In this document: positions 2,982-51,600 of the stretch, piece after piece
Layout: each line of letters starts with the position of its first letter
How positions within the stretch are numbered: position 1 is the stretch's first letter
Source: Candidatus Doudnabacteria bacterium
GTDB lineage: Bacteria > Patescibacteriota > Doudnabacteria > UBA920
Length of the DNA stretch: 64,000 bases
Assembly (NCBI GenBank): GCA_016218585.1
Contig: JACRDK010000031.1
Location: forward strand, 65,764 to 129,763
Reading direction: 5' to 3'
Position numbers and translations under genes: made by a program
The notes under the pieces: model-generated
What the model saw: the letters and a program-made list of their open reading frames with translations, nothing else
The model's database searches: none
What the model was told of the DNA's origin: nothing

Positions 2982-3312
2982 ACTAATAATCCTCCTGAAC
3001 GTTTCGGACTATTACCAAAAAATCCCTGAAAAAGACTATTTTGGCAATCAAAATATCTTACACCTAAGCGGAGTAATCGTCAATAGACAAAAAAACAACC
3101 TTCTCTTTATGGAAGGCCGTCTTATTATTAATACAATTAATATTAACCCTACATATTTCCAACTGCACGATTCCTGCGGCGCGCCTGACCGCCCCCGACT
3201 GGACAATTCGCAGTTTACCCCGTAGCGGAGCCGATGAACGTCGCAGCGACTGGTACTGGGGCGAATTGTCCAGTTGAACGATAATTGTATAAGTATAAAT
3301 TTTACTTCCCTT

Positions 3313-3672
3313 CTAAACAGATAATTTTTCTATTGCCGCTTGGATAGTTGGAACAAAATAGGTCTGGCGGCCGCGGTTGCTCTCTATTATTAAGGCTTTA
3401 AAGGCTTCACTGGTAATATTGGAAAAATCGCCAACAATGGCGCAAGCAATGCCGTATTGGGAAAACTTTTGCAAAATTTCTCCGGCCAGGCCGGTGCGCA
3501 GCTCAAAAAAGTCCGGATGAATATTTTCCCGGTGCAAAATAATTTTCTTTGGCGCGGGGGTTTGCACATTGGCCACTAAATCCAAAGCGTCTTGCATGCT
3601 GTTTATGCCAATTCCCTCAAACTCAACTTCCGCTATTTTTACTCCCCCATTTTCGTGAATTGTAGTTTTCAT
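3313..3672 (-). CDS. DUF4180-like hypothetical protein
   Basis: 119-aa ORF in host-like GC. Confidence 0.4.
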   Translation of the reverse strand: MKTTIHENGGVKIAEVEFEGIGINSMQDALDLVANVQTPAPKKIILHRENIHPDFFELRTGLAGEILQKFSQYGIACAIVGDFSNITSEAFKALIIESNRGRQTYFVPTIQAAIEKLSV

Positions 3673-3676
3673 AAAG

Positions 3677-4345
3677 CTAGAGTAATTTTAGGATAACTTG
3701 TTTTAAATCGGAAACCGTATTTACAATATTTTTTAAATTAAAATGTTTTTCTCTGTTTAAAATATCTTCTCTGTGGACGCCCCAAGTTACAGCCACGGCG
3801 GGAACGCCTGCCTTATCGGCATCTATAATATCGCCCAAAGCGTCGGTTATAAACAACATTTCTTTATTGCTAACCTTGTATTTGTCCGCAATAATTTTAA
3901 ACTTTTCAACTTTATCTTTAGAAGTTTCAGCCGATGCTATAAAGCCAAATAAATTTTCAATTTGGGAATTCTTTAGCAAAGGCAACGCATTGCGCTCATA
4001 GGCATTGGTATTTAAAACAAGAATGTAACCCAAATTACGCAACTCAGTTAAAAGATCTTTAATCCCTTCAAATAACTTGCTCTGGCTTTTCTTTTCGGCA
4101 TATTCTGCGTGCCGCTTATTTTTTTCTTCTTCAGATTCCGAAATATGCAAGCTTAAATATTTAGCCGCTTCCTGATGAAAATTCCCGCTATGGATTTCAT
4201 TGTACATTTCCTCGGTTACTCCCGGATGCGTTTCCAAAAACACCTTCCTGGCAAAAGGTATGGTATCAAATAGCACTCCGTCCATATCAAAAATTATAAT
4301 TTTGTTGTTATCCACCATACCTAAAGAATAACAAAAAAATGCCAT
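3677..4345 (-). CDS. HAD-superfamily hydrolase (subfamily IA-like)
   Basis: Motif I IIIFDMDGVLFDT; true start may be the internal Met (MVDNNKIII). Confidence 0.65.
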   Translation of the reverse strand: MAFFCYSLGMVDNNKIIIFDMDGVLFDTIPFARKVFLETHPGVTEEMYNEIHSGNFHQEAAKYLSLHISESEEEKNKRHAEYAEKKSQSKLFEGIKDLLTELRNLGYILVLNTNAYERNALPLLKNSQIENLFGFIASAETSKDKVEKFKIIADKYKVSNKEMLFITDALGDIIDADKAGVPAVAVTWGVHREDILNREKHFNLKNIVNTVSDLKQVILKLL

Positions 4346-4390
4346 TTATGCGATTCTAGCGCTTTGGCTTTAAAATTTTCCTAATATATA

Positions 4391-4435
4391 GAGAAAGCGC
4401 GCGTTTCGCCGATGGGCAAAACGCGCGCTTGATGA
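4391..4435. repeat. 45-bp direct repeat copy 1 (contains 12-bp-stem hairpin AAGCGCGCGTTT..AAACGCGCGCTT)
   Basis: Identical to 5280..5324. Confidence 0.9.
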
Positions 4436-4482
4436 TGAGCAGCTATCTCGATTGTTTCGAAGCCGTCCGCAACTACTGCTTA

Positions 4483-5226
4483 TTAGTTGCGATTGGCGGA
4501 GCTGGCTACATACGGCTTGGCGATGAAAGTGGTGTGGCAGCGATAATGGATGCAGGTAATTACCTTCTCCTCATTGCCGAGAACCATGTCCATCATAACC
4601 TGACTGCATTTGGGACATTGGATGTCACCGTAGCCGTTGAAGGCTGTGGCCGTAGGTGACTCAGCCGGCGCAGTGGGCGGCTTGGAAACCTCCGTTTTCT
4701 TGGCGATGGCTTGAAACTTTTGATAACAGACCCGGCAGGAGTATACGTCGGGTTTGTTATTGACGTTCATCCAGATGCCGCATTCGGTTCGCGTACAGCG
4801 TGCCCACCCATCAAAGTCGATTTCGGACTCGGGCAATTTCGGGGCGACCGGAGCAGGTTTGCTGGGCGGCACTGAAACGCAGGACGACGGTAGTGGCGCG
4901 GACGCCAAGGAGCCGTCCAAAAGTTTCCGGAGCTCGTCCGGCGTACACCGGGCACCGGTAACTTTGCCGTGCGGCCCATCCATTATGAGCCGTCCTCGGA
5001 ACTGATGTGTAACACGAAGGCTGTAGAACACACTCATTCCGCGTATTGTGCCAAGGTTAGAGGCAATCACGACGAAATCGGGTTGCAGTTCTTTTAAAAG
5101 CTTCGCCGTTTGTGTCGTTGCCGTAAACGGCGTAAACGGAAGCGCGGTAAAGAGTCCGCTATGGCCTGACTGTTGCCATTGCTCTGCTGTACCGGGATCC
5201 TTATCAACAAAAAAGACCGTAGACAT
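4483..5226 (-). CDS. hypothetical protein: N-terminal flavodoxin/receiver-like fold followed by two CxxC zinc-ribbon pairs; high-GC foreign gene
   Basis: 247 aa; strong AAGGAGG SD; GC about 60%; CxxC..CxxC twice; no confident family assignment. Confidence 0.5.
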   Translation of the reverse strand: MSTVFFVDKDPGTAEQWQQSGHSGLFTALPFTPFTATTQTAKLLKELQPDFVVIASNLGTIRGMSVFYSLRVTHQFRGRLIMDGPHGKVTGARCTPDELRKLLDGSLASAPLPSSCVSVPPSKPAPVAPKLPESEIDFDGWARCTRTECGIWMNVNNKPDVYSCRVCYQKFQAIAKKTEVSKPPTAPAESPTATAFNGYGDIQCPKCSQVMMDMVLGNEEKVITCIHYRCHTTFIAKPYVASSANRN

Positions 5227-5279
5227 ACGATCCTCCTTATGTGGTATATATTAGTGAAAATTGAACCCTGTGTCAAAAT

Positions 5280-5324
5280 GAGAAAGCGCGCGTTTCGCCG
5301 ATGGGCAAAACGCGCGCTTGATGA
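5280..5324. repeat. 45-bp direct repeat copy 2
   Basis: Perfect copy of 4391..4435 on the other side of the high-GC gene. Confidence 0.9.
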
Positions 5325-5378
5325 CTAAATTGAGTTTAATTTAACTATTCTCCAAAAGCTTTTTGTTATCTAATTAGA

Positions 5379-6236
5379 TTATTTCCATTCAGCCAATAAT
5401 GGTTTGCCGGGGCTCTGCCATGGGCCGACGTATAAGCCATTAGCCTTTCTTTGTTCCTCGTTGCTTTTGCCGCCATCGGACAATATTTCCTGAAAAGCCT
5501 CATTGAAACCGCTCTCAAATTTTTTTCGTCCATCCTGCAAGGCAGTCTGCCATTCCGCGTCCGAAATCCCGTCAATTTTGCCGCTATAAAACGGAAACTT
5601 TTTTTCATAAGAAATTGATTTAGCGGCAAGATCATGCCAGGCATTTACATCGCTGCCAGCCCACTCATTAATTGGCCCGCCTATAACTTGGTTTAAGGAA
5701 GCCTTTAACGCCGGGTAATTTGACTGGTCGGGGTCATTGGCAACCCAAGCGCCGGAACGCGACTGAAAAATATAAAACCAAAATGCCGCCTGTTCAATAT
5801 TTCCCTGCTTAGCTAGCACTCCGGCCAACTCGGCATACATAAAAGGGTTGACCTGTTCGGGATGCTTAAAAATTTGTTCAATGGCGGCTTGCTGATCCGC
5901 AAGTTCCTGTTGGGAACTGCCTTTTGGCATAAGCATTTGTTCTAACTGACTTTCCTTGAATTCATTTGATTTGTTGTTCATATTATTCTGGCTGCTGTTA
6001 GATGTTTGCGAGTTGGAATTTGGCTGCTGCTTTTCCAAATAATAGCCGTACCAGGCCAGGAGGATAAAAATAATAACAACTGCCCCAATAACTGCGCCGA
6101 CAATTTTCCAAACTTTTTTGGCGGCAGAAGGCGCGGGAGTCGGACTGCTTGCATTAGGGGTCGGCGTTGGAACAGCCATTTCCGGGCTGTTGTCTAACTG
6201 GCTATTTGTATTTGTGTTTAAATTTTGCTCTGGCAT
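5379..6236 (-). CDS. hypothetical membrane-anchored protein (Pro/Thr-rich N-terminus, single TM, Asn/Ser-rich linker)
   Basis: 285-aa ORF; TM segment IVGAVIGAVVIIFILLAWY. Confidence 0.5.
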   Translation of the reverse strand: MPEQNLNTNTNSQLDNSPEMAVPTPTPNASSPTPAPSAAKKVWKIVGAVIGAVVIIFILLAWYGYYLEKQQPNSNSQTSNSSQNNMNNKSNEFKESQLEQMLMPKGSSQQELADQQAAIEQIFKHPEQVNPFMYAELAGVLAKQGNIEQAAFWFYIFQSRSGAWVANDPDQSNYPALKASLNQVIGGPINEWAGSDVNAWHDLAAKSISYEKKFPFYSGKIDGISDAEWQTALQDGRKKFESGFNEAFQEILSDGGKSNEEQRKANGLYVGPWQSPGKPLLAEWK

Positions 6237-6272
6237 AATTTGTTATTAATTATTTTTTTAGTTAAGGCGGGC

Positions 6273-7022
6273 TTAATCTTTATAGCTGTCTGGGGCTATG
6301 GTTTGAATTTTCCAAGTTCCTTCTTTCACCAAATTAAAAATTAAGTGTTTGGAAGTTTTGTCGTTCCCTATGACTTGAAGATTAACCGTGGCGGTTGTGA
6401 AGACAACTTTGTTCTCGTAAACGGAATAACCGCTATTGTCCAATAAAATAGGATACTGCGCAACCAGGGCGGGTAAATTTACCGGGCTTTGTTTAGAAAT
6501 TAAAGCTTTTGCCGCATCCATATTTGATGCCTTTAAATCGCGGTAAAAATCTAATACCGCTGATTTGGAAAAATATTTATCTTCAAGCATTGCGACTTTG
6601 TCTTTTATCCCCTGCTGCGCTTCTTGGCTATCGGGTCCGGCCTCGGGGAAAATAAAATTGCTGGAGTCTTGGCCAAACTGGCGCCAACCCCCTTTTTCAA
6701 GATCATAATTTAGCAAAACAAAATTAATTGAATCTGCATCCTCTTGTTGGCTCTTAACATATGCGGCGTGGTTGCCTACCTGCATCGCATCCAAGAATTT
6801 AACCGGGAATTGTTTAGGGTCTACTTCGTCAAATATTGGAGAAGTGGCCTCTTCGCTGGCATCTTCCAATGCGGATTTTATATCGTTGTTCATATTATTA
6901 TTTTGTTTGTTATCTTTGGCTGATTGTTGGACTTGTTGGTTTGTAGCTGGTGGCGGTGTTTTTGCGCCGCAGGCGGCCGCTAAAAGCACAATAGAAACTA
7001 AGCTAACGATTGTTTTTTTCAT
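6273..7022 (-). CDS. hypothetical lipoprotein
   Basis: Signal peptide plus lipobox LLAAAC. Confidence 0.55.
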   Translation of the reverse strand: MKKTIVSLVSIVLLAAACGAKTPPPATNQQVQQSAKDNKQNNNMNNDIKSALEDASEEATSPIFDEVDPKQFPVKFLDAMQVGNHAAYVKSQQEDADSINFVLLNYDLEKGGWRQFGQDSSNFIFPEAGPDSQEAQQGIKDKVAMLEDKYFSKSAVLDFYRDLKASNMDAAKALISKQSPVNLPALVAQYPILLDNSGYSVYENKVVFTTATVNLQVIGNDKTSKHLIFNLVKEGTWKIQTIAPDSYKD

Positions 7023-7225
7023 TTTTAAAATTTTAATTATTTGTTTCTAAAAAACTATATAATATAGAGTATAAATATAAATAACTAAGCCGCAAAAATT
7101 CATACTCCGCATATTTATAAGTTAATTATACACTCTTTTAATACAGTTAGCCATTGCGGCATAAAAGCCTTAAAAACTCCTAACAAAAAACGCGCCGGCT
7201 TTAGGCCGGCGTTTTTAAATTTAGT

Positions 7226-8599
7226 TTATATCTCCGAATGAATGTTTGCGTTGTTGTGGAAGAAGTTGGTTGGGTCGTATTTCTTTTTTATTTCCAGCAA
7301 ACGATCCCAGGTTTTTCCGGGGTAAGCTTCCTTTATGCGTTCCTTGTCGTCATATTGCCCCAAGAAATTTGCGTAAACCGCTTTGTCGCCCTGGTCTAAC
7401 AATTTTAAAAATTCATCCGCCCAAACTTTGCGTTCTTGTTTTTCCTGTTCGGTTTCGTAAAAGCTGGCAACGTTTGCCATAATTGCGCTGCTCCTGTGGG
7501 CGTAAGCGGTATTAAAACTCCCTACCCTGGCCATTGCTCCGCCTAACACTCTAAGCTGCAAAACTTTCATTTGGGCGTTTAGGGAATTTAAATGCGCAAC
7601 TATTTTTTCCGCCAATTCTTCGTCTATATTATCCAAATGCAAATTTTTAGACACTGCTTTAGGGTGATAGTCCGGATTTTCCGGAAAATAAATATCTTTA
7701 TAGCGCATTGGCTTTAGCATATCCGCAAGCGGCGCAGCTAAAGCGCGCAGCGGAGAGAGCGCTTTTTCCCCTTCTGTTGGGCTGCCCGCATACACAGCCA
7801 AAGCCATAACGCATAGCTTGCCGTGATGCTGGGCCGGAATAAACGGCATTGGGGGCATAGGCATAATATTATAAATCACCGAAAGCTCTTCCGGAGCTTT
7901 TTTGGCAATGTCCACGGCTTTCCAAATTACTTCCGGGGTTGCGGGCAAAAATAGCATGCCGCCATAGCAATTTTCCAGCTTGTGCAATTGAAATTTAAAC
8001 TTTGTGGCAATGCCAAAATTTCCGCCGCCGCCGCGAATGGCCCAGAATAAATCGGGGTTTGTTTTGCTGTCTGCCAGCAGCGTTTGGCCGTCTGCCGTAA
8101 TTATTTCCGCGGCCAAAAGATTGTCTATGGTAAGGCCAAATTTTCTAACTAAAAATCCCACGCCGCCGCCTAAAGTAATTCCGCCCACGCCAACCGAGCC
8201 TGCATCGCCAAAGCCTAAAACAAAATTATGCTTATCTAGCTCCGTGGTTACTTCCCCTGCGGTCATGCCGCTTTCTATCCACGCGGTTTGCTCTGTTGTG
8301 TTTACTTCCATTCTTTTCATATCGCGCAAATCTATAACTACGGCGCCGTTTACAACGCAAGCTCCGGTGGCGCTGTGTCCCCCGCTGCGCACGCAAACTT
8401 CCAAATTATTTTCCTTGGCAAAAATAATTATTTTTTTAATATCTTCCGCATCTGTCACGCGCACAATGCACGCGGGTTTTCTGTCTAATTCGCCCGGAAA
8501 AACCTGCCGGGCTTTATTGTATTCAACATCATCAGGGAAAATAATTTTTCCCTTAAGGGTATGCGAAAACGCTTTTAAATTGTCGGAAATATTTTGCAT
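7226..8599 (-). CDS. FAD-linked oxidoreductase (PCMH-type FAD-binding, berberine-bridge-enzyme-like C-terminus)
   Basis: RSGGHSATG FAD motif; C-terminal NFFHNNANI BBE-like motif. Confidence 0.7.
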   Translation of the reverse strand: MQNISDNLKAFSHTLKGKIIFPDDVEYNKARQVFPGELDRKPACIVRVTDAEDIKKIIIFAKENNLEVCVRSGGHSATGACVVNGAVVIDLRDMKRMEVNTTEQTAWIESGMTAGEVTTELDKHNFVLGFGDAGSVGVGGITLGGGVGFLVRKFGLTIDNLLAAEIITADGQTLLADSKTNPDLFWAIRGGGGNFGIATKFKFQLHKLENCYGGMLFLPATPEVIWKAVDIAKKAPEELSVIYNIMPMPPMPFIPAQHHGKLCVMALAVYAGSPTEGEKALSPLRALAAPLADMLKPMRYKDIYFPENPDYHPKAVSKNLHLDNIDEELAEKIVAHLNSLNAQMKVLQLRVLGGAMARVGSFNTAYAHRSSAIMANVASFYETEQEKQERKVWADEFLKLLDQGDKAVYANFLGQYDDKERIKEAYPGKTWDRLLEIKKKYDPTNFFHNNANIHSEI

Positions 8600-8663
8600 A
8601 TAGGAAATAATAACAAAAAATATTAGCTTTGGCCATAGAATAAAAACTATTATTTACAAAATG

Positions 8664-8706
8664 AAGAAGCGCACGACACCACCTGCTAGGGTGGGCGCGC
8701 GCTTCG
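8664..8706. repeat. GC-rich palindromic element / terminator behind foreign gene B (GAAGCGCACG..TAGGGTGGGCGCGCGCTTCG)
   Basis: Imperfect inverted repeat; shares its ends with the element at 10526..10572. Confidence 0.5.
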
Positions 8707-8717
8707 TTCAGCTGTGT

Positions 8718-9257
8718 TCATGAGACGAGAGCCTCGGCCAGGTGCTGGACGATGCAGCCGAGCGCCCCGTCCGGATTTCCCGGCATGTCGAGGCAACCGC
8801 TGAATTGGACCAATATTACCAGCGGGTCGCCTTCGCCCGGCAACAGGCAGTAGTGGATTGTGAGCCGTTCGCCGCGCCACTCGCGGAGAAGTTTCTCAAG
8901 CCGTTCGATGAGCGGTTTCGGAATTGAAAGATCGGTTACGACTGCTTGCTGGTTCCAGTCGCGAGTGTACGTTCTCTCGGTCGTTTCCATCAAGTAATCG
9001 ATGAAGATGTCGGCGTTTTCAAAGCCTTCACCAATTCGAAGCGGTGCCGGCAACTTGATTTCTACGGCCAGGCTGCCGCCTTTCGGTATGGCGTAGTGCA
9101 TTGTCCAAGGCTGGTTGAGGAACGCCTGGAAATCAGCGTAATCATCAATGCTGCCTTTTCCCGTGGTGTAGCTCCGGCTCCAAAACAGCGAGCCAAGGAC
9201 TCCTACCGGAACAGGTTCCCTAATCCGCAGAGATTCAATCGTGTCACAAATTGGCAT
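8718..9257 (-). CDS. hypothetical protein; high-GC foreign gene
   Basis: 179 aa; AAGGAGG SD; GC about 60%. Confidence 0.45.
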   Translation of the reverse strand: MPICDTIESLRIREPVPVGVLGSLFWSRSYTTGKGSIDDYADFQAFLNQPWTMHYAIPKGGSLAVEIKLPAPLRIGEGFENADIFIDYLMETTERTYTRDWNQQAVVTDLSIPKPLIERLEKLLREWRGERLTIHYCLLPGEGDPLVILVQFSGCLDMPGNPDGALGCIVQHLAEALVS

Positions 9258-9365
9258 TCTGCCTCCTTATTGATACCGTAATGTACCAAAAAAGCCTAAG
9301 GAAGTCCAGACCAAAAAATGCGCGTGCCCAAGGCACGCGCATTTTTTAACTCATTACAGATTGTG

Positions 9366-10451: not shown

Positions 10452-10525
10452 ATATTTATTTTTAATTATTTTAGTTAGCTAATTATAGCATTAGTTTAAT
10501 TTGTTCCAAAAAATCCAAACAAAAG

Positions 10526-10572
10526 AAAGAAGCGCACGTCGTTGCCGGTTAGGGCGAGCGGGTGCGCTTCGG
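10526..10572. repeat. GC-rich palindromic element / terminator behind the PNP-family gene (GAAGCGCACG..TAGGGCGAGCGGGTGCGCTTCG)
   Basis: Same end motifs as 8664..8706. Confidence 0.5.
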
Positions 10573-10595
10573 GTTGTTCTGTACCACGGTTTTAC

Positions 10596-11423
10596 CTACG
10601 AATAGGCGGGAAGCGGATGTCGGGAGATGTCTGCCAAAATCGAAGGGTCCGAAGACAGTATTACCAAGGCATCCAGGGCAATCTTTGCCGCCCTCTCTTC
10701 GCCTTCCACGCCCCACTCGTTGCTGTGGCGGTTGGCGAACACGGCGTTGATGGCACCGCACGGCAGACCACGACCCTTGGCCATGCACCAGACGAACAGA
10801 CTGGCCGCTTCCATGGAGTAGCAGGCGGCACCGAGATCCATCACTTCCTGATGGCGCTTCAGCATCCGCTCGGAAAGTGTGCCCCAGATGTCGGGACGGC
10901 CCTGCCCGTCATAGAAGCAGTCGGTGGTGCACTCCGGGCCGAGATGAAAGTCGGACGGGCACTCCTTCTCCGCGGCGGCAGTCAGCGCTGAGACCACCCG
11001 CCAGTCGGCCACAGCCGGGAATTCCGGCGGAGCCCAGTTGTTGGAGGCGCCGTCGTAACGAATGGCGCAGGTGGGGATGATTACATCGCCGATGTGCGAC
11101 TCCTCGATGAGTGAGCCACAGGAACCGACGCGGATAAACAGCCGGGCGCCGCTGCGGACGGCTTCGGGAAGAACGATGCCAGTTGAGGCTCCGCCCATGC
11201 CGGAAGTCGTGACCGAAACTCGGGTGTTGCCATAGTAACCGGTATGCGAAACGAGGCCGCGATGATCGTTGGAAAAGCGTTTGGACTTCGTCAAAAACTT
11301 TTCCGCAATCATGTCAGCCCGTCCAGACGCACCGACGATCAGGCAGAAGTAGGACAGATCGCCGTCGGAAGTGTGGGTATGGTACTGCTCATAGTGAGCA
11401 GTCCGTGGTTGATCTGCTTTCAT
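10596..11423 (-). CDS. purine/uridine nucleoside phosphorylase family protein (DeoD-like); high-GC foreign gene
   Basis: Motifs SGMGGAST (phosphate loop), FIRVGSCGS (cf DeoD IIRVGSCGA), MEAAS; start moved to the internal ATG at 11423 with AAGAGGAG SD, because the longer track ORF runs into low-GC host DNA. Confidence 0.65.
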   Translation of the reverse strand: MKADQPRTAHYEQYHTHTSDGDLSYFCLIVGASGRADMIAEKFLTKSKRFSNDHRGLVSHTGYYGNTRVSVTTSGMGGASTGIVLPEAVRSGARLFIRVGSCGSLIEESHIGDVIIPTCAIRYDGASNNWAPPEFPAVADWRVVSALTAAAEKECPSDFHLGPECTTDCFYDGQGRPDIWGTLSERMLKRHQEVMDLGAACYSMEAASLFVWCMAKGRGLPCGAINAVFANRHSNEWGVEGEERAAKIALDALVILSSDPSILADISRHPLPAYS

Positions 11424-11496
11424 AACCGTAGCAAACTCCTCTTTTTGATTTGGTCCCAAGGGTAAGATTCCCAAAAGACCCTTTAGTCTAGCAAAA

Positions 11497-11650
11497 AAAC
11501 CTAAGGAAGTCCAGACCGGGAGCTGTCCCGATATAAAATAGGGTTGCGATAAATTCAATTGTAATTTCAACAAACCCAAACAATAACAAAAAGCCCCATC
11601 ATAAAGATAAGGCTTTTTGTATGGCTCCAGTTAGTGAACGTACTGAGAAC
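11497..11650. repeat. intergenic repeat family copy (A-run plus hairpin terminator module)
   Basis: About 80% identical to 13895..14045; 3' half matches 16178..16255 in inverted orientation. Confidence 0.75.
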
Positions 11651-11702
11651 TGTTGATTGGAAGGAATTGGAGCAATATTAAGATTATTGCTGGTATTTGC
11701 TG

Positions 11703-13894: not shown

Positions 13895-14045
13895 GCCCCA
13901 GACAGGCCGGGAGCTGAGCCCAATATTAAATCGGGATGTACCAGATTCAATCGTAATCTCAACAAACCCAAAAAATAACAAAAACCCCCATCATAAAGAT
14001 GAGACTTTTTGTATGGCTCCAGGTAGCAAATGATGTCAGAACTAA
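13895..14045. repeat. intergenic repeat family copy
   Basis: See 11497..11650. Confidence 0.75.
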
Positions 14046-15396: not shown

Positions 15397-15538
15397 ATGC
15401 AAAGGTGATTAAAAGTCATCTATATATAGACAACGTTCGGGAGTAGCTCTCCGCCAAAGGCGGACTAAAGAGCGGTTAAGCAATCCCAACAGTAAAGTGG
15501 TCCGCCTCTGGCGGAGGCTGTAACTTATTACAAAATGT

Positions 15539-15784
15539 ATGTTTTACATCTATGTTTTAAGAAGCAGTAAAAACAATAAACGATACGTTGGTTCGACATC
15601 AAAGTCGCCCGAAAAGCGAACCAGCGAACACAATAATGGTATTAATAGTTTTACCAGGCACAACAAGCCATGGAACCTAATATACCAAGAATCATTTACG
15701 ACAAAAAGCGAGGCTTTAAAAAGGGAAAACTTTTTGAAGTCTGGTCAAGGCCGTAAATGGCTTGATGAAAATATTCGGGAGTAG
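15539..15784 (+). CDS. small GIY-YIG nuclease-domain protein
   Basis: FYIYVLRS..RYVGST motif; stop codon overlaps the first 10 nt of the tRNA. Confidence 0.6.
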   Translation: MFYIYVLRSSKNNKRYVGSTSKSPEKRTSEHNNGINSFTRHNKPWNLIYQESFTTKSEALKRENFLKSGQGRKWLDENIRE

Positions 15785-16177
15785 CTCAGCGGTAGAGCAA
15801 TCGGCTGTAGACACAGGTCTCAAAAGACCAAATTAGCAGCCTTCTCAAGTAATTGAGAAGTGAATAACGAGGTGAATTGTCCCGATGACAAGTCGGGATT
15901 CCGAAATCGCTTGAAATATTAGCGGAGTCGGAACTGGAAACCTAAATTCGTAAATTACGAATATGGCAATCAGCAGCCAAGCCCAGTTCTTTTAAAAAAA
16001 GATCTGGGAAGGTTCAGAGACTATCTCGAAAGAGAGTAGGCCTTAATAAGTTAAGGTCGAAGCCCCTCGTCCCGTACTCTTTTTATAGAGCGGGAATGAT
16101 ATAGTCCACTCCTAATAGAAATATTGGGGTTACGTGTAACCGATGGGTCCTGGGTTCGAATCCCAGCTCCCGAGCCA
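15775..16177 (+). tRNA. tRNA-Asn(GUU) interrupted by a group I intron in the anticodon loop (exons 15775..15808 and 16137..16177, CCA encoded)
   Basis: Acceptor stem TCGGGAG/CTCCCGA, D-arm GCTC-AGCGGTA-GAGC, anticodon stem ATCGG/CCGAT, T-arm CTGGG-TTCGAAT-CCCAG, G73, CCA. The spliced anticodon loop is CUGUUAA, and U1-A72/G73 match bacterial tRNA-Asn. Confidence 0.7.
15809..16136 (+). other. group I self-splicing intron (tRNA-type, IC3-like)
   Basis: Conserved Q-like AATCAGCAGCC (15969), R-like GGTTCAGAGACTATC (16011), S-like AATGATATAGTCC (16095); P7 GACTA/TAGTC. Internal guide GCAGCC (15836) pairs with exon end GGCUGU including a U-G wobble; UUA just 5' of it can pair with 3' exon UAA (P10); terminal G at 16136. 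Confidence 0.75.
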
Positions 16178-16255
16178 TAACAAAAAGTCTCATCTTTATG
16201 ATGGGGCTTTTTGTTATTCTTTGGGTTTGCTGAAATTACGATTGAGTCTGACACA
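16178..16255. repeat. intergenic repeat family copy (3' half, inverted); serves as terminator right after the tRNA
   Basis: Reverse complement matches ATTCAATCGTAAT.TCAACAAACCCAAA.AATAACAAAAAGCCCCATCATAAAGATGAGACTTTTTGT. Confidence 0.7.
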
Positions 16256-16335
16256 TCACAATCTTTTTTAAGTAGAACCTAGGACCTGTTTGGTGCTATA
16301 ATTAAAATCAGAATCATTATTTAGAAAAAAATTTA

Positions 16336-18711: not shown

Positions 18712-20559
18712 TTACTTCTTCGGCTGGCGGATCTTCTTGCCGAGTTCCCGAAGCTGCTCGGGGCTCATCTGCTTAATCTCTTCCGTCACCGTTCTTGCTT
18801 CGTTTTGCGCTTCTTCCTTGTCCCGGCGCTGGGTCGAGCGTTCGGTCACCTCGGTCTGGGCCTTAGTGACTTCCAGCGGAAGCGATAGATTGTCGAAGTT
18901 ATGCATCGGGACGATATCTTCGCCGGAGGCGAAGTATTCGATCTTGACCTTGTCGCCCGGCTCCGTTACCGGGAGTTTGTGGAAGTCGGCGCTGCCGCCA
19001 GTGAACAGATGCGGAACGCCTTTCAAATGCACGTAGTACACGGCGCCCGTAGTCAGCAGATCCGGCTTTACCCGGTCCACTGTTCCCTCGATGGTTTGCA
19101 AATCGCGCGTCTTGTCGAGCGCCACTTGTTGGCCGAACTGGGAGAGTAGTTTTTGATAAGCGCGGAGTGCTTCGAACTGGTTGCGGCCAGTCGCGACGGT
19201 CTGGATATTGGTGATATCCACAATCGCGACGCCCTGGTAAGCGTGATTCTCTGAGAGCAACGGAACGACCGATGACATAATGCCGTAGACGTTGTAGAGT
19301 TGCGGGTCGACGCCATGGAGCTTCTTGTACTGGACATCCTGGTTCTTGCTAATCGCGTCTAGCACCGCCTGGTCCGTCCCGCCGCCTTTGGTCTTATACA
19401 ACACCGTCTTCCCAGTCCGGGAGTTAGTGTAGACGAGAGATACGAGCGAGTCGTCCTTGTCATTGCGCGAGGTCAGGCCGGTCACCCAGTCGGGTTGCTG
19501 GTCGGAAGCATAAATCAGGTTGGGGTCTTCGGGTTTGGTAAGGTCTTTCGTACCCCACCAGCTGTTGAGCCAACCGTGCGTGTATTCGCCCCACCAGTCG
19601 AGGTAATTCTTGACGTAATTGGACGGAATAGCGCGGTCGATCCAGTCGGGAATTTCTCCCATCCTTTTGAAATTGATGTCGCCGGAAACTGGATCCACGA
19701 TGGCCACGCCCGTGACCTTTTTACCGCTCCACATGATGGTCGGTTCAAAAGTCGAAACTACCCACCACGGCCGCTGGTTATCGTCGATCTCAAACTGGTA
19801 TTCGGCCAGACCCTTGCCCAGGTACCCGTTATTGCGCAGATGCCGTTCCAAGTTGTTCCCGAAGCAGGCTTCGGGCATGTAACGGAACTGTTGGTCGGAG
19901 AGCAGGATCTTGAGAATAGGTTGCCGATGCGGATCTTCGCCGTGGACCATGATGTAACCGGGTGTCGCCTTGGTGTTGAGCCAGACCGAGAAGCCGGAAA
20001 AATCCAGCGGCGCCACATACCACAGTTCTCCGTTGATCATCTGCAAAGTCATGTGATCCTCGGAAATGACGAACTGGCTGCCGATCGCGCCCGCTTCGCC
20101 GAGGGCTTTCTTAGCCAGGTAGATGGCGTTCTCCCGGGTGGACATGCGCATGTGCTTGGGGTCCTTGGGTTGGACGTCTTGGGTCCACACCCTGGTTTCC
20201 AGAGATCCGATCATATGCTGGTATTCGTCGGCGCGGAACAGGCCGCTTCCCAGAATGAAGCTACCGATATACAACACGGCAGCCCCGATCGGGAAAATCG
20301 CGGCTTTGGTGATATGGGTATCGTAGTCGTCTTCGATGAACGCGTCGATGACGGCGGCGATGATCCAGCAGATGAATATAAACACGCCAGGCACGCCGAA
20401 CAGCGGCCAGACAGTCGAAGGGGTAGCGAGGTAGAAGACAAGCCAAAGAACAATGGCCGAAATCGACCCCTGCCAAACGGCAGCCGTAATCTTCCTTCCC
20501 ATTAGGAGCGGGACGGTTCCGATTGCGGCGCAAATCAACGCTGCAAGAAAGTAAAACAC
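18712..20559 (-). CDS. hypothetical large membrane protein (4 N-terminal TM helices plus about 450-aa extracytoplasmic domain, charged C-terminal tail); high-GC foreign operon gene 1
   Basis: 615 aa; GTG start 7 nt after AAGGAGG. Confidence 0.5.
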   Translation of the reverse strand: MFYFLAALICAAIGTVPLLMGRKITAAVWQGSISAIVLWLVFYLATPSTVWPLFGVPGVFIFICWIIAAVIDAFIEDDYDTHITKAAIFPIGAAVLYIGSFILGSGLFRADEYQHMIGSLETRVWTQDVQPKDPKHMRMSTRENAIYLAKKALGEAGAIGSQFVISEDHMTLQMINGELWYVAPLDFSGFSVWLNTKATPGYIMVHGEDPHRQPILKILLSDQQFRYMPEACFGNNLERHLRNNGYLGKGLAEYQFEIDDNQRPWWVVSTFEPTIMWSGKKVTGVAIVDPVSGDINFKRMGEIPDWIDRAIPSNYVKNYLDWWGEYTHGWLNSWWGTKDLTKPEDPNLIYASDQQPDWVTGLTSRNDKDDSLVSLVYTNSRTGKTVLYKTKGGGTDQAVLDAISKNQDVQYKKLHGVDPQLYNVYGIMSSVVPLLSENHAYQGVAIVDITNIQTVATGRNQFEALRAYQKLLSQFGQQVALDKTRDLQTIEGTVDRVKPDLLTTGAVYYVHLKGVPHLFTGGSADFHKLPVTEPGDKVKIEYFASGEDIVPMHNFDNLSLPLEVTKAQTEVTERSTQRRDKEEAQNEARTVTEEIKQMSPEQLRELGKKIRQPKK

Positions 20560-38773: not shown

Positions 38774-39811
38774 TTACTGCTCCTGCGACAATGCCTGCCA
38801 AATCCCCGGGTCTTCCCCGCCGAGCCGCCATAAGGCTACCTTTTTCAAACCTAAACTTTTGAGCATGGTTATCCTGGCGGCCAAGCTTTGCCGATCTTCA
38901 AACCAGACCTGTCCTTCGCCGCTGCGGACAATTGGAGCACTGCTGTCGGTATCCCTACTGAGCGCGCCGCTGTTAGCCTGAACCGGACGGACCAGCCGCT
39001 GCCAGGTGCCGGTACGGTAATTGCCTTTGGTCCAATACAAAGCCACAATTGAAACGCCAACGGTAAGCTTCTCCGGCGGAACGGCCTGCAATATATGCTG
39101 CAAACGAAGCCGGCTCCACCACAGGGATGCCGATGGTCCCGGAGCGGTTGAAGCGCGGTGTTCGCCGTAAAGCATTAGCCTCACCGAGTCTGCCGCCACG
39201 CCAATTCTTTTCCAGGACACAAGCGCGCTTTGCGCCATTGTCGGCTCCAAACTTACCGCCACAGTTTTTCCCTTGCTCCTCAGCGCCGCCGAAAGCTCTT
39301 CTACAAAATCGGCCAAAACCGGCAACTGTTTAGGCAGCAAGCCTTCTATGTCGATGTCCACACCGGCATAGTTTTTAGCTTCAACCAGAGCAACAATGTT
39401 GTCCGCCAATGCGGCGCGAAGAGTTGGGTTGGTTAAAACCGGCAGCGCCCACTCCGGATGAGAACCCGAAGCATCCACATTGCTGATTATAGGCCTAAGC
39501 AAAAATCCGTTTTTCTTGACGTCGTTTAGCAGCCGGGAGTCATCTACAAATGCGTTGGGGTTATTTTTCAAAGCCCCATTGCTCTGAACTTGATACCAAG
39601 CCGGGCTCACCTCGGCGATTTGGGCGGAATGGCTTTCCAAACTCGACAAGCCGGCGTCCCAATCGTTCTGATGCAGCCAGGCAATTACGGTGAATTTACC
39701 CCGCTCCTGCGCAATGCCGCTTGGCACCGCAACAAGCAGCGACAAAAAGAAAATTGTCGCATTCGTCATTCTTCCCTCCTTGGAAAAAAATCTCACCAAC
39801 CATTTTTTCAT
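38774..39811 (-). CDS. putative secreted glycoside hydrolase (GH18-like TIM barrel)
   Basis: GVDIDIEG resembles the GH18 DxDxE catalytic motif; signal peptide; in the EPS operon. Confidence 0.4.
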   Translation of the reverse strand: MKKWLVRFFSKEGRMTNATIFFLSLLVAVPSGIAQERGKFTVIAWLHQNDWDAGLSSLESHSAQIAEVSPAWYQVQSNGALKNNPNAFVDDSRLLNDVKKNGFLLRPIISNVDASGSHPEWALPVLTNPTLRAALADNIVALVEAKNYAGVDIDIEGLLPKQLPVLADFVEELSAALRSKGKTVAVSLEPTMAQSALVSWKRIGVAADSVRLMLYGEHRASTAPGPSASLWWSRLRLQHILQAVPPEKLTVGVSIVALYWTKGNYRTGTWQRLVRPVQANSGALSRDTDSSAPIVRSGEGQVWFEDRQSLAARITMLKSLGLKKVALWRLGGEDPGIWQALSQEQ

Positions 39812-45614: not shown

Positions 45615-48600
45615 TTGAAAATAGAAAAGTCAAAATTAAAAAATAGCTTTTTGGGCGGAATGCCGAAAGCAGAAACACTCAAAAAAAATTTGGGGGGTTT
45701 TTTAATTATTTGCATTTCCTTCTCTCAAACCATTGCTCCCTGGGCCATTGCTGCCACCCCGACCGATAATGCAAGCGCAAACTACACCACAGAACAATTT
45801 TATCCGGAACAAATTTTACAAAACTCCGATGACTCTCTCCCCTATGCCTGGGCGGCTTCTGAAAACGCCTTGACTCGCGAGCTTGCAGACAGCGCACCCT
45901 TAGAGCAATTCTCAACAAGCAATTCCGCAGTACTGGCCAATTCAAAAACTGAGGCCACTTCCACCCCGTCAGACTTGCTGGCGGAACAACCTCCTCTTGA
46001 AAATAATAATTCAACTACCACAGCCAGTTCAACCAATATTGAAGTTCCTCCGGCGGTCTCTGAGGCCAGCTCAACGGAAATTAAAATTTACGAGGCGGAT
46101 GTCTCGCCTGCAAACCTCTCGGAGCAAAACCAAATAGAAAATTCCGAGAGCTCCACTTCTCCGGATGTTTTGGATTCTAACCAGAACTCTCCAACCAATC
46201 AAACAAATTCAACTGAAACAGAAATCACGCCAACAACAACTCAAAGCAGCGACACAGAAATTACACCGAGCACAACGCCAAGCAGCGTCACCCCGCCAGC
46301 CGCAACTATTAACAATGAAGACAACTCGTCAACAACGCCGCCGGACATAGCGAGCGCGACGCCGGTGGAAATTTTGCCGACACCGGAACTTAGCGCCCCA
46401 GTTTTGGAATACGGACATTTTACCAGTAGCCAAAATTCCTCGGATAAAAATAATTTTAACAACCCGGCCCAGGCAAGAATAAAACTGTCGTTTGCTTCTC
46501 TGCCGCTTATTGCCGGAAAACTTATTTTAGAATATTCAGTTGCCAGCTCTTCCTGGCAAACTCTCTCGACTGTTGCGCTAGACGGCCAAAGTTCAAATGC
46601 GGAGCGAAACGGCTTCTTTTCTGCCGAACTACCGCAAACAGCTATAAATGATTTATCAACTCTACATGTAAGGCTAAAAATATCCGCCCCGCAAACCAGC
46701 TGGCAAAATATTTTGCCTAGCGAATTATTTTATTTGGATTCTATCTGGCTGGAAGCAGATTACAAAAACACGCTTCCGGAAATTGACGAAGACCAGCTTG
46801 CCGCGACTGACCTTGGCAATTTAACTCCCGAGGAGTTCGCCCATTTAGATTTTTTCAGCCCGCTTATGGAATTATTTATGCCGGCGGACTTATCTGCTAA
46901 TCCAATTACGGTTGGCAGCAAAAAATTAGGCTTTAACTCTCTCCCTTTGCAGATGCTTCCAATAAACGTCTCGACCGACTCGCCAGCTACCAGATTAGGG
47001 CAAAAAGTAACCTATGCCGATGCCTACAAATCCACGGATTTGGAATATATAATGTCTGACTCAGGATTGAAAGAAAACATAATCCTAAAAGATAAAAATC
47101 ATCCGTCTAAATTCCGCTACCTTACCAACTTAGACAAATACGACTCTGTTCAGACCTCTTCTTCGACCATTGCTCTTTTTGCCAAAGGACATAAAGGACA
47201 GCCGCTGTATCAACGCTATGTTCTGTCCGCGCCAATAATGACAGACAGCCAGGGACAGGTTAGTTCGCGGCTTGAATTTAAAGTTAACAAAAATTTAATA
47301 ACTTTAATTCCGGACCCGGCCTGGCTAAAAACCGCCAGCTATCCGGTTACTGTTGACCCGAACGTCAGCTTAAGCGTTTTAAATGTTTCCTCTTTTCCGG
47401 TAGCCGGAGAATTTTGGACTATTGATTTTACGACAGTCGGGCAAGATAACTTAACAATAACCCCGGCTGACCAGGCAACCGTAGATGATATGGAATTTTC
47501 TTCACTAACCTGCGACGGAAATCCAATAAGCGCAAATGTTTCCGCCGGCGGACAGGTGGCGGTTAACAACTGGTCGTGCGACGGCATTGGTGAGGTAAAA
47601 TTCTTGGACAAAAAAACCGGACACCACCAAATGATATTTAATTTTGGCGATGCCAGCCAGGATGCTTATAACGGCTCCAACACTTGGAATGGCTTAGCCG
47701 GAGACAGCAACTGGGCTACCGGCGGCAACTGGTCATTGGGAACAGCCCCGGCGCTGGCTGACGATGTAGTAATTAGCACGGCGGCGACCATAAACATTAG
47801 CAGCTCCACCGCAATAAATTCGTTAACTCTTGGCAACTCCGGCGGCGGAGTAGCGACTGTTTTAAATTTTAATTATGACGCAATTGGCGGACAGCCTCTT
47901 AGCATTACCGGCAACCTTACTGTGTATAGCGGCGCCAGCATTACCCACACGGTAAGTTCTGCCGGATCTGTTGTAGGAACTGTAAATATTTCAACCGGCG
48001 GAAATTCCACCATTACGGGAAGCATTAGCTTAAATGCCAAAGGGTATACCGGCGGTTACGGACCCGGCAAAGGAACCGACGACTTAAGGGCGGGCGGAGG
48101 CGGTTATGGCGGCAACGGCGGAACCGGAAATTTGGGGGCTTTGGGCGGAACAAGCAATGGCTCAACTACAGTGCCAACCTCTTTGGGTTCCGGCGGCGGC
48201 AACTCGGGATGCGGAAGCACCGGCGGGACAGGAGGAGGAGCCTTAAAATTAAGCACAACCGGAACAACAACAATTGCCGGAACTATTACCGCCAACGGCG
48301 GAACCGGCGCAACCCCCTGCTGGAACTCGGGCGGCGGCAGCGGTGGTTCAATTTATATTATTACAAATGTCTTAACCGGAGCCGGAAGCATTACCGCCAA
48401 CGGCGGCGTTGGCGTTACCGGCGGCAACGCCTCAGGCGATGGCGGCGGCGGAAGAATTGCCATAAATTATACCACTGACAATTCCACCATAACTTATTCC
48501 GCTTACAGCGGCGCCGGACAGCTTTATGGAGGAAGCGGGACGGTTTACAAAAAAAGCCAGGCGCAAAGCACGGGCGATTTAACATTTGATAATAATAACT

Positions 48601-51600
48601 TAGGCGGCAGCACCGACACATCTTTTGGCAAAAGCATTTTAGGTTCCGCCTCTTATAATTCCATTACAATAAAAAATTCTGCCTCATTATATTTAACCGC
48701 GTCTTCGGCGACTGCCACAACTTTAACTCTTTCTAACAATGGCTTATACGATGCCAAAGCCAGCACGACTTTAAGCTACTCAACTTTGAACTGGGGCGGC
48801 ATTATTGTTGACAGCGGAGGAACTTTGCCGGTTTTAAATCAAAATCAAGACATAACTATTCCAACCAGCTCCATATTGTCATTTAATGTTTTAAGCGGAA
48901 CCCGCACTTATAACAATGTAACCGTAAATGGAACGCTTACCAACACCGCAAATTCATCCGCAACAACAGGCACGGTTTCTTTGTATAAAATAAATTGGTC
49001 AGCAACTAATAATTTAACTGTTGGTCCTTCGGGCAGCATAAATGTTGACTCAAAAGGTTATCCTGGCGGCGCAGGCCCCGGAGCAGGCGGCACCGGAACT
49101 CAGGCGGGCGGCGGCGGCTACGGCGGCAAAGGCGGGGCGAGCCCAACCCCGGTAGCCGGAGGCGTTACTTACGGCTCAACATCCAGCCCTGTTAGCCTTG
49201 GATCGGGCGGCGGCAACACCGGGTGCGGCACTGTCGGAGGAATTGGTGGCGGCGCTGTTCAATTAACAGTTAGCGGAACCACGACAATTTTAGGAACTAT
49301 TTCCGCCAACGGCGCCAACGGCGGAACTTACCCTTGTTGGAACTCCGGCGCGGGAAGCGGCGGCTCAATTTTTATTACTACTAGCGGTCTTGCCGGAACC
49401 GGCACGGTTTCCGCTAACGGCGGAAGCGGAGTAGCCGGAGGCAGCGCTTCCGGTGACGGCGGCGGCGGCAGAATTTCTATTATTGCCACAACTAATTCCG
49501 CCAGCCTTACCAGAACTGTAAACCCCGGAACATCATACACCGCCGGAGCGCCCGGCTTGGGAACAACTTACCCGACTGACTTTCCCAGTATGTCCACCCA
49601 GGCGGTATCCAATAACATTACAGGAACGTCCGTTACCGGCAATGGGACAATTAACTCCATAAATTATTATCCCATAACTCAGTACGGCCATGTCTGGTCA
49701 ACCTGGGTCAATCCAACCGTACCAAACACAGATATTACTGACGGCGGATTCGGCACAGCGACATCTTCAAAATACAACCAAGGCGTGGTAGCTAATGCCT
49801 TTGACAACAGCACCAGCACTTTTTGGGGATCGGACCAAGGAACTCCTTACGATGTAGAGTATGACTTTGCTACAACTACGGTAGTAAATAAATACATTAT
49901 TATTTCTTCGCCTTCCGGTGCGCCTACCGACTCGCCAAAGGATTGGCAATTCCAGGCTTGGGATGGAGCTTCATGGGTAAATTTGCAATCCGTTTCTTCA
50001 CAAACAGCCTGGGGTAATACCGAATCAAGAGCTTTTACTTTAGTGAACACCACGCCATATACTAAATACCGCCTATACATTACCGCCAACAACGGCGGCG
50101 GCTGGACCAGGTTTGCCGAATTTCAAATGTTAAATACTTCCAGCAGCGTAGCGGCCAATGGCGCCACTACCACTCCCGGAGCATTTACGTCTAATATTTC
50201 CGGGCTGAGCCCGAACACAACTTACTACACCCGTTCTTATGCCACCACCCAAGCGGGCATTGCTTACGGCGACAACATTTCCTTTAGTACCGGTAATGCC
50301 AACAACGCCCCAAACTCCCCCTCTTCTTTAGGTCCCAATAATTTTACCAGTAATACTTGGACAACTTCTACCGCGCCGACTTTGACTTTTAATTTAACCG
50401 ATCCGGACGGCAGCGATACCGTAAAGTACAGAATAATTTTAGACAACGACAGCAATTTTTCTTCACCGTTAATAGATTATACTTCCTCGCTGCAATCACA
50501 AGGAGCCGCCAGCTTTACGGTTGGCCAAAGCGCCGGCAGCGGCAGCTACTCCATTGGCACTGCCGGGCAAACCCTGTCTGACAATAGTTCATACTACTGG
50601 GAAGTCCAAGCCATAGACAGCAATACCCTTACCTCATCATTTACCGTAGCAAATTCCGGAAGCATAGCTTTTAAAGTTGACACCACGGCCCCGGTCGCGG
50701 GAACGGCAAACTTTGGCGCGATTACAGAAACATTATTAATTGTAACTTCCAGCGGATCTTCAGATGCCGGCTCGGGAATTGCCAGCTACTACTATAGAAA
50801 CTTTACCAACTCTACCACTTACGGGCCAAATCTTTCCGCTTCTTGGAATGACAGCGGACTAACCCCAAACACGCAATATTCATTCAACATAACCTTAACT
50901 GACGGCGTAGGTTTAACTTCCACCACCGCCACATCCAGCGCTTACACTCTTGCCAACATTCCATCCAGCCCGACAACCACGGTAATTTCCAATTCCTCAA
51001 TTTTGCTTTCTTGGAATAATAATTCAAACCCGGCCAATACCGAATACTACGCGGAAAATTCAACCAGCGCATTTAACTCCGGCTGGATTACCGGCACCAG
51101 TACGCTCTTTACCGGCTTGTCCTGCGGCACCTCGTACACTTTTCACGTTCGGGCACGCAATGCTGTTGGAACCGTTACTTCTTATAGCGCCTCTGTTAGC
51201 CCTTCCGCTTCACCTTGCAATAACAATCCCAACACGCCTAGCTCTCTAGGCTACAGCCAATACACTAATGGCGGATGGACAAATCAATCAACGCCGATTT
51301 TGGCATTTAGCTTAACTGATTCAGATGCCTCGGACACTATTAAATACCGGGTGCAAGTTGCAACCAGCAGCGACTTTTCCGCATTGGTGGCAGACTATAC
51401 TTCTCCCCTGCAAGCACAAGGAGCGCAAGCTTTTACCGTTGGACAAGCAACCAGCACCGGCAGCTACGCGGTTGGTTTTGCCGGACAAACTTTGGCGGAT
51501 AATTCAAACGGTTATTATTGGCGGGTAATGGCCATAGACAACAGTTTAGCAACTTCATCCTGGGCCAGCGCAGCCGGCGGAGCGGTTGCTTTTAAATTAG

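Follow-up and report, generated by a model that had tools for sequence, protein, structure and literature searches.

In the chromosome of a Candidatus Doudnabacteria organism, a member of the CPR bacteria, two perfect copies of a 45-bp, hairpin-forming sequence enclose a single-gene transcription unit of foreign base composition. Judged from its sequence, this unit is complete, and each copy of the repeat is located at the position expected of a terminator. The enclosed gene has its own promoter, is mobile between genomic contexts, as comparison with its homologues shows, and belongs to a region in which terminator modules are shared by unrelated genes. We give an even chance to the explanation that the gene forms a cassette of the moron type, the terminator copies on either side of which arose by recombination between terminator modules and make such recombination possible. 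The sequence analysed (hereafter, the window) is a stretch of 64,000 nucleotides from a MAG contig of 137,608 bp, in which the neighbours of the cassette are housekeeping or accessory genes (Table 1).

The repeated hairpin and the transcription unit that it encloses

The 45-mer GAGAAAGCGCGCGTTTCGCCGATGGGCAAAACGCGCGCTTGATGA, here called module T1, occurs twice in the window, exactly where the preliminary description had placed it, with no mismatches between the copies in a pattern search and no matches in 100 shuffles. The two copies are in direct orientation, 889 bp apart from start to start, and the repeat is exactly 45 bp long, the outer neighbouring bases being unlike on either side. The high-copy, REP-like scatter that had been named as an argument against a cassette is not seen within the window: a third copy at up to three mismatches was not found, nor was a degenerate copy by blastn-short. 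The wider search for further 45-mers that had been recommended also gave none in GTDB representative genomes, JGI metagenomes and IMG/VR. The stem-only pattern matched four unrelated hairpins with other loop lengths in the GTDB representatives, which do not include the source MAG; an exact 36-mer of T1 is absent from the JGI metagenomes and IMG/VR, and nothing significant was found in Rfam either for the repeats or for the T3 module described below.

The 12-bp stem that had been reported is present in the DNA (AAGCGCGCGTTT/AAACGCGCGCTT, all pairs perfect) and, as minus-strand RNA, becomes a continuous stem of 16 bp (one G-U) closed by a 4-nt loop. Predicted energies on this strand, which is that of the gene, are -29.4 kcal/mol (z -6.0) for copy 1 and -31.2 kcal/mol (z -7.3) for copy 2; the plus strand folds more weakly. 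In both copies the stem is followed by UUUCUC, which continues into AUUUUG in copy 2 (TCTCATTTTG), passing the terminator scan with 16 pairs, and into UAUAUAUU in copy 1 (UUUCUCUAUAUAUU), just under the scan's rule of five T in eight. With a GC-rich hairpin on the transcribed strand of both copies, as in intrinsic terminators, T1 on the gene strand looks like an intrinsic (Rho-independent) terminator, a role assigned purely from folding and the consensus scan.

Table 1. Coordinates of the cassette, its neighbours and other features of the window.
Feature	Position	Strand	Description
HAD-family hydrolase gene	3677..4345	-	downstream, low-GC (0.354); Pfam HAD_2, E 4e-21
T1 copy 1	4391..4435	-	predicted terminator, 47 nt past cassette stop, upstream of HAD hydrolase gene
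247-aa orphan protein HY918_05940	4483..5226	-	ORF; two Cys4 zinc ribbons
5'UTR/start hairpin	5207..5240	-	predicted fold -14.4 kcal/mol, z -3.7
Cassette sigma-70-type promoter	5248..5276	-	TTGACA (5276-5271), 17 nt, TAATAT (5253-5248)
T1 copy 2	5280..5324	-	predicted terminator, 54 nt past stop of 285-aa gene
285-aa gene HY918_05945	5379..6236	-	upstream; transcript would end at copy 2; GC3 0.47
Units of genes A and B with their modules	8657-9312 and 10520-11517	-	upstream module GGTCTGGACTTCCTTAGG..TTTTTTG.TA.A.TA and terminator T2
Gene A	8718-9257		179 aa
Gene B	10596-11423		PNP_UDP_1 phosphorylase
Further genes with outlying GC3	1668-2981, 18712-20559, 38774-39811		
125-nt intergenic module	11527-11651, 13919-14043, 16180-16265	-, -, +	three copies in 5 kb
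GC-rich non-coding stretch	3199-3273		13-bp inverted repeat round 49 nt
tRNA gene split by group I intron	15775-16175	+	Rfam RF00028 at 15836-16128, 59 bits, E 2e-12
Partial copy of the split tRNA's 5' end	15429-15449		
2993-aa ORF	45615-54596	+	GGC-rich internal repeats

On the minus strand, the order of elements is the 285-aa gene, 54 nt, copy 2, the promoter, the start hairpin, the ORF, a 47-nt 3'UTR, copy 1 and the HAD gene. Copy 1 is therefore placed, by its distance from the cassette stop, as the predicted terminator of the gene, and copy 2, proposed as an upstream element, is such an element and at the same time the predicted terminator of the preceding 285-aa gene. The foreign composition of the gene is likewise borne out by a GC content of 52.7% in the 844-bp interior vs 37.4% and 43.1% in the flanks, and by a GC3 of 0.61 in the 247-aa ORF. 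The interior does contain this ORF but not, as had been stated, the ORF only, since a promoter and a ribosome-binding site are also located there. The promoter begins 3 nt beyond copy 2 and is the top promoter-like site in 3000-7500, agreeing with the consensus at 10 of 12 positions. Downstream of it, UCUUUUUU in the coding sequence is predicted to form a start hairpin with the Shine-Dalgarno sequence AAGGAGGA (5238-5231) and the AUG (5226-5224), and a homologue on the metagenomic contig L004 has the same hairpin (-13.8 kcal/mol). In the window and at 233-260 of L004, the pairing partner is a U-run in codons 4-6, and the DNA of this hairpin is kept among homologues whose proteins are only 49-51% identical; in its predicted fold it resembles a fourU-type RNA thermometer or a translational repressor.

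NCBI lists the 247-aa protein as a hypothetical protein of Candidatus Doudnabacteria. Its N-terminus is an alpha/beta domain, weakly receiver-like, and eight Cys, invariant across homologues, form its two zinc ribbons. Comparison with Pfam gave a HypA match below cut-off and nothing else, a PDB profile search gave weak L34 and EvgA matches only (EvgA receiver, E 0.09), and the AlphaFold model has a pLDDT of 54. Nothing significant was retrieved for the cassette protein from PHROG (one marginal match, E 0.006), the PADLOC defence search gave no match, and tblastn found no counterpart in phages or plasmids; a viral origin is not borne out. Homologues of the neighbouring 285-aa gene are patchy, being found in CPR-like contigs and a few Alphaproteobacteria.

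Homologues of the gene and the sharing of modules

Homologues of the 247-aa protein are rare, only three being found among 5.8 billion sequences, and 21 matches among 1.84 billion representatives. Three contigs (L004, L006 and L007) hardly differ from the window in their DNA between the -35 box and the first codons, and the gene stands in four contexts, namely behind T1 in the window, behind T3 on L004/L005, behind the terminator of another cassette on L006 and behind an AT-rich host terminator on L007. The reading as a cassette proposed in the preliminary description is thus upheld, the unit being discrete and its gene recurring in three other genomic contexts with the same promoter. From L007 (GCA_040961665.1, contig JBFOMY010090819.1) the 5' part only entered the comparison; its GC content runs from 0.22 through 0.55 to 0.72, its cassette gene, which a gene on the opposite strand overlaps, breaks off at about 840, and the whole is probably a chimeric contig. 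Counted from the ATG, the left limit of the homology differs by context (about -95, -72 and -38), which is a poor fit to one fixed recombination point. The window cassette joins T1 exactly at the -35 box, without the AT-rich upstream part that is present in the homologues.

The homologues carry T3, not T1. T3 is a 3' module of two hairpins, both sequence-invariant across genes and metagenomes, with a free linker between them. Two T3 copies (48-144 and 981-1077, 933 bp apart) enclose the homologue on the MEGAHIT contig L004 (k=141), the upstream copy coming after a different gene; the pair agrees at 25/25 positions in hairpin 1 and at 47/51 in hairpin 2 with its tail, and the 21-nt linkers are unrelated. 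T3 is also found after the homologue on L006 (2432-2500) and after a third, unrelated gene on L019 (770-840, minus strand). A loop-loop contact is possible, the loops of hairpins 1 (UGGGG) and 2 (CCCCA) being complementary.

Within the window, module sharing is seen at genes A and B, which are GC-rich and mutually unrelated and have a common upstream module (88% identity) and a common terminator, T2 (72%). In other metagenomes (L020/L021 and L022), T2 accompanies homologues of gene A (67-73% identity), and on L020/L021 the upstream module is also with them; on L020 this module is a perfect terminator hairpin, with which a -35-like TGGACT overlaps. What looked like a cassette swap between L020 and L021 reflects different gene calls on DNA that is identical. 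T1 and T2 have in common the outer stem AAGCGCRCG/CGYGCGCTT, around centres that vary, and the looser stem-base pattern AAGCGC...GCGCTT has five matches vs 0.45 expected. A covariance model of T1 and T2 found only four sites in the 64 kb, those of T1 and T2 themselves, at 49 bits or more, the other terminators scoring 18.6 bits or less; by this comparison T1 is of the cassette type and not of the AT-rich host type of terminator. The AAGCGC stems were also considered as a DNA-uptake signal, which we rejected, the motif being confined to cassette terminators. All three modules, T1, T2 and T3, have U-tails in the sense orientation. IMG/VR contains neither the T3 hairpin nor the A/B upstream module nor the cassette promoter.

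A further module of 125 nt, intergenic and 82-89% identical among its three copies, consists of a bidirectional terminator hairpin and a promoter-like stretch, and each copy lies upstream of a different gene. The third begins right at the 3' end of a tRNA gene that contains an intron. In this tRNA gene, ARAGORN detects no tRNA in the intact sequence and one after in-silico removal of the intron, and which anticodon it has depends on where exactly the splice points lie.

The cassette is not the only GC-rich unit of the window. GC3 values of 0.60-0.73 were found in six single genes, namely the 247-aa gene, genes A and B and the further genes of Table 1, most genes having 0.29-0.50, and those outliers whose upstream DNA was inspected have near-consensus sigma-70 promoters, such as TTGACA-17-TATAAT at a gene of 615 aa (start 20559). 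At five other GC-rich single-gene units of the window no flanking repeats beyond chance were found, so that the duplication is not a general mark of insertion here. Between a DUF4180 gene and the promoter of a GC-rich xylose-isomerase-like gene lies a GC-rich non-coding stretch with the inverted repeat CTGGACAATTCGC ... GCGAATTGTCCAG, and the window also contains a giant ORF (Table 1).

Origin of the flanking repeats

According to the explanation that we favour, the 889-bp unit would have been acquired horizontally as a self-contained transcription unit with the anatomy of a moron, placed between the 285-aa and HAD genes. Its start hairpin would sequester the ribosome site and the AUG, copy 2 would end transcription of the 285-aa gene, and copy 1 would end the cassette transcript and shield the HAD gene. 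The T1 copies would owe their identity and sharp borders to a recent recombination event and not to descent along with their genes. Most likely, a cassette with T1 already at its end was joined by recombination to the T1 that followed the 285-aa gene, in a linker-mediated shuffling such as has been suggested for promoter/stem-loop (PeSL) cassettes in T4-type phages. We infer that the duplication was made in this way and that the modules serve as crossover sites. The T1 pair would also allow the gene to be lost precisely, either by slippage or as a circle of 889 bp, with one terminator left, and excision as a circle may take place.

Recombination between modules is supported by the perfect identity and sharp borders of the repeats, together with the parallel offered by L004 with a different module, and by the location of the copies at similar distances past the stops of same-strand genes. 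The near-consensus promoter and ribosome site of the cassette and its deviant GC content also argue for it, as do the homologues with the same promoter and 5'UTR behind different terminators in three contexts, the recurrence of T2, T3 and the 125-nt module at unrelated genes, and the relatedness of T1 and T2. Furthermore, the papers on PeSLs follow the same logic and describe mini-circles (PMC2839356, PMC4122927). The explanation is weakened by the failure to find an empty site, a circle junction or a second T1 location, by a promoter that, unlike in PeSLs, lies outside the repeat, and by the five GC-rich units without flanking repeats. It is also weakened by the occurrence of T3 instead of T1 at the homologues, which leaves the acquisition of T1 unexplained, by a length of 45 bp, short for RecA-type recombination, and by a terminator role that comes from folding and a consensus scan, with the tail of copy 1 below the T-run rule.

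It is unlikely, in our judgement, that T1 is instead a lox-, dif- or attC-like site for site-specific recombination, at which the gene, ‘floxed’, would be mobilised in trans by a recombinase whose gene lies in another part of the genome. The perfect direct repeats and their sharp borders speak for it, and T1 can be read as 14-bp inverted arms (13/14 matching) round an asymmetric 8-bp spacer CCGATGGG, as can any such hairpin. The invariance of the T3 hairpins around a varying linker, which is more constraint than a terminator needs, and the common outer stems and variable centres of T1 and T2 point in the same direction. Against this, no recombinase, transposase or integrase domain was found in the about 50 ORFs of the window, and no attC cores (GTTRRRY/RYYYAAC) within or at the ends of either T1 copy. 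The T1 stem is perfect, without extrahelical bases, every module has a terminator-like U-tail in the sense orientation, and the cassette has its own promoter and a left border that differs between contexts. No empty site was found either, and the att-like, integrase-driven insertion suggested in the preliminary description is not supported. In the search for an empty site, homologues of the 285-aa gene were 56-64% identical, non-syntenic and followed by other terminators or none; neither a circle junction nor a second location of T1 was found.

REP elements are GC-rich palindromes in 3'UTRs, and T1 could be a small palindrome of the REP/MITE kind, or a reused terminator, that spread independently to both sites, its bracketing of the gene being incidental. 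Several short intergenic repeat families are indeed present in this genome, and the other GC-rich genes have no flanking repeats. We consider this improbable, given that just two copies of T1 are present in the 64 kb, in direct orientation and separated by 889 bp from start to start, and that they exactly enclose a GC-rich unit, that T1 was not found in the GTDB representatives, JGI metagenomes and IMG/VR, that no RAYT, TnpA, TnpB or IS200-like domain is encoded by the window ORFs, and that the homologue on L004 is enclosed likewise by a different module.

More doubtful still is a hairpin-directed target duplication, in which staggered nicks beside an extruded palindrome, insertion of the foreign DNA and fill-in would have doubled a resident terminator. 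The borders of the repeat, 4 and 5 nt beyond the stem and almost symmetric, and the perfect identity of the copies would agree with it, as would the junction at the -35 box, without the AT-rich part upstream; moreover, the different terminator of the homologues implies that T1 could be host-derived. However, T1 is of the cassette and not of the host type, the unrelated linkers of the module copies on L004 are incompatible with simple duplication, and we know of no bacterial mechanism that gives target duplications of 45 bp. Cruciform resolution was rejected as the source of the duplication, in that the 4 + 5 non-palindromic bases are duplicated too.

In the k=31 Logan assembly of SRR12113407, contigs break inside both T1 copies, as is to be expected of a true 45-bp repeat: the exact matches to the window (L001, 4406-5309; L002, 1985-4420; L003, 5295-12588) end 30 nt within the repeat copies. 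That a chromosome with one T1 was joined, through the 45-mer, to a separate 889-bp circle or to another organism's sequence by an assembly artefact is very improbable: the loop topology of the k=31 graph cannot separate R-X-R from R plus a circle, but any assembler k above 45 resolves the repeat, the MAG contig is 137.6 kb long, other GC-rich units lie inside the unbroken k=31 contig L003, so that the GC mosaic is real, and an independent k=141 contig has the same architecture.

Relation to known systems and significance

Morons, PeSLs, integron cassettes and REPs are already known, and in its layout the present unit is closer to the cassettes of T4-type phages, with their terminator and promoter boundaries, than to an integron or to an insertion driven by an integrase. 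The PeSLs, or promoter-early stem-loop cassettes, were described in the hyperplastic regions of T4-type phages (Arbiol et al., 2010, PMC2839356; Comeau et al., 2014, PMC4122927) and resemble the present unit in that single orphan genes lie between repeated short motifs with a terminator stem-loop beside a sigma-70 promoter, no dedicated recombinase is known and the cassette is transcriptionally insulated; recombination of the motifs has been put forward as the means by which the gene, in the form of a mini-circle, leaves or enters. A repeated terminator stem-loop motif around an orphan gene is found with T1 and also with T3 on L004. In contrast to PeSLs, the promoter here is not in the repeat, as it adjoins copy 2 and is absent after copy 1, although a promoter within the repeated motif is present in the A/B upstream module and in the 125-nt module. 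Moreover, the repeat is a terminator only, of 45 bp, it is located on a cellular CPR chromosome rather than in a phage, and only two T1 copies are seen; neither a close relative nor a circle junction was found. According to the PeSL authors, there was no evidence yet for such plasticity in cellular organisms (PMC2839356).

With the morons of temperate phages (Hendrix et al., 2000; Cumby et al., 2012, PMC3594210) the cassette shares its own promoter and terminator, a deviant GC content and a location between two resident genes; it differs in being outside a prophage context, with no significant PHROG match. As in integrons, single-gene units end in a palindromic site, the 3' site is common to unrelated genes, arrays are possible (L004, L006), and outer stems are kept while centres vary (T1 vs T2); unlike in integrons, there is no IntI in the window, R''/R' cores are missing, the stem, which is imperfect in attC, is perfect in T1 and followed by a U-tail, and the cassette has its own promoter. 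REP/BIME and REPIN elements are, similarly, short GC-rich 3'UTR palindromes able to act as terminators or stabilisers, but the two copies in 64 kb are direct and placed round a gene, instead of forming inverted doublets, with no RAYT in the window. Perfect direct repeats of tens of bp round foreign DNA, with restoration of a resident function (the terminator), recall the att sites of integrase islands and Xer-dependent IMEX/dif elements, from which the 889-bp insert differs in having no integrase, no dif-like AT-rich core and no recombinase in the window. From IS200/IS605 elements (PATE) it differs in the absence of TnpA/TnpB and in ends that are identical over 45 bp, including non-hairpin bases, instead of two differing subterminal hairpins that carry conserved cleavage motifs. 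The cassette misses defining features of integrons, REPINs and IS200-type elements. What sets it apart from PeSLs and morons is that a CPR chromosome is its host and that the terminator only is repeated.

A broader proposal, which we advance only tentatively and consider doubtful, is that of a CPR cassette-exchange system, in which GC-rich, promoter-bearing single-gene units would be moved from genome to genome and from locus to locus via the terminator hairpin modules T1/T2 and T3 acting as recombination sites; the agent may be the general machinery or a hairpin-specific recombinase yet to be found. If true, such a system would amount to a cellular counterpart of the phage PeSLs, or to a kind of integron lacking both IntI and attC. 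How CPR bacteria, whose genomes are tiny, come by accessory genes is poorly understood. If the modules are crossover points, they would provide a plug-and-play gain and loss of genes, recombinase-free or dependent on a novel recombinase, that leaves the transcription of the neighbouring genes intact, and the perfect 45-bp pair would be the cleanest test case for such crossover between modules.
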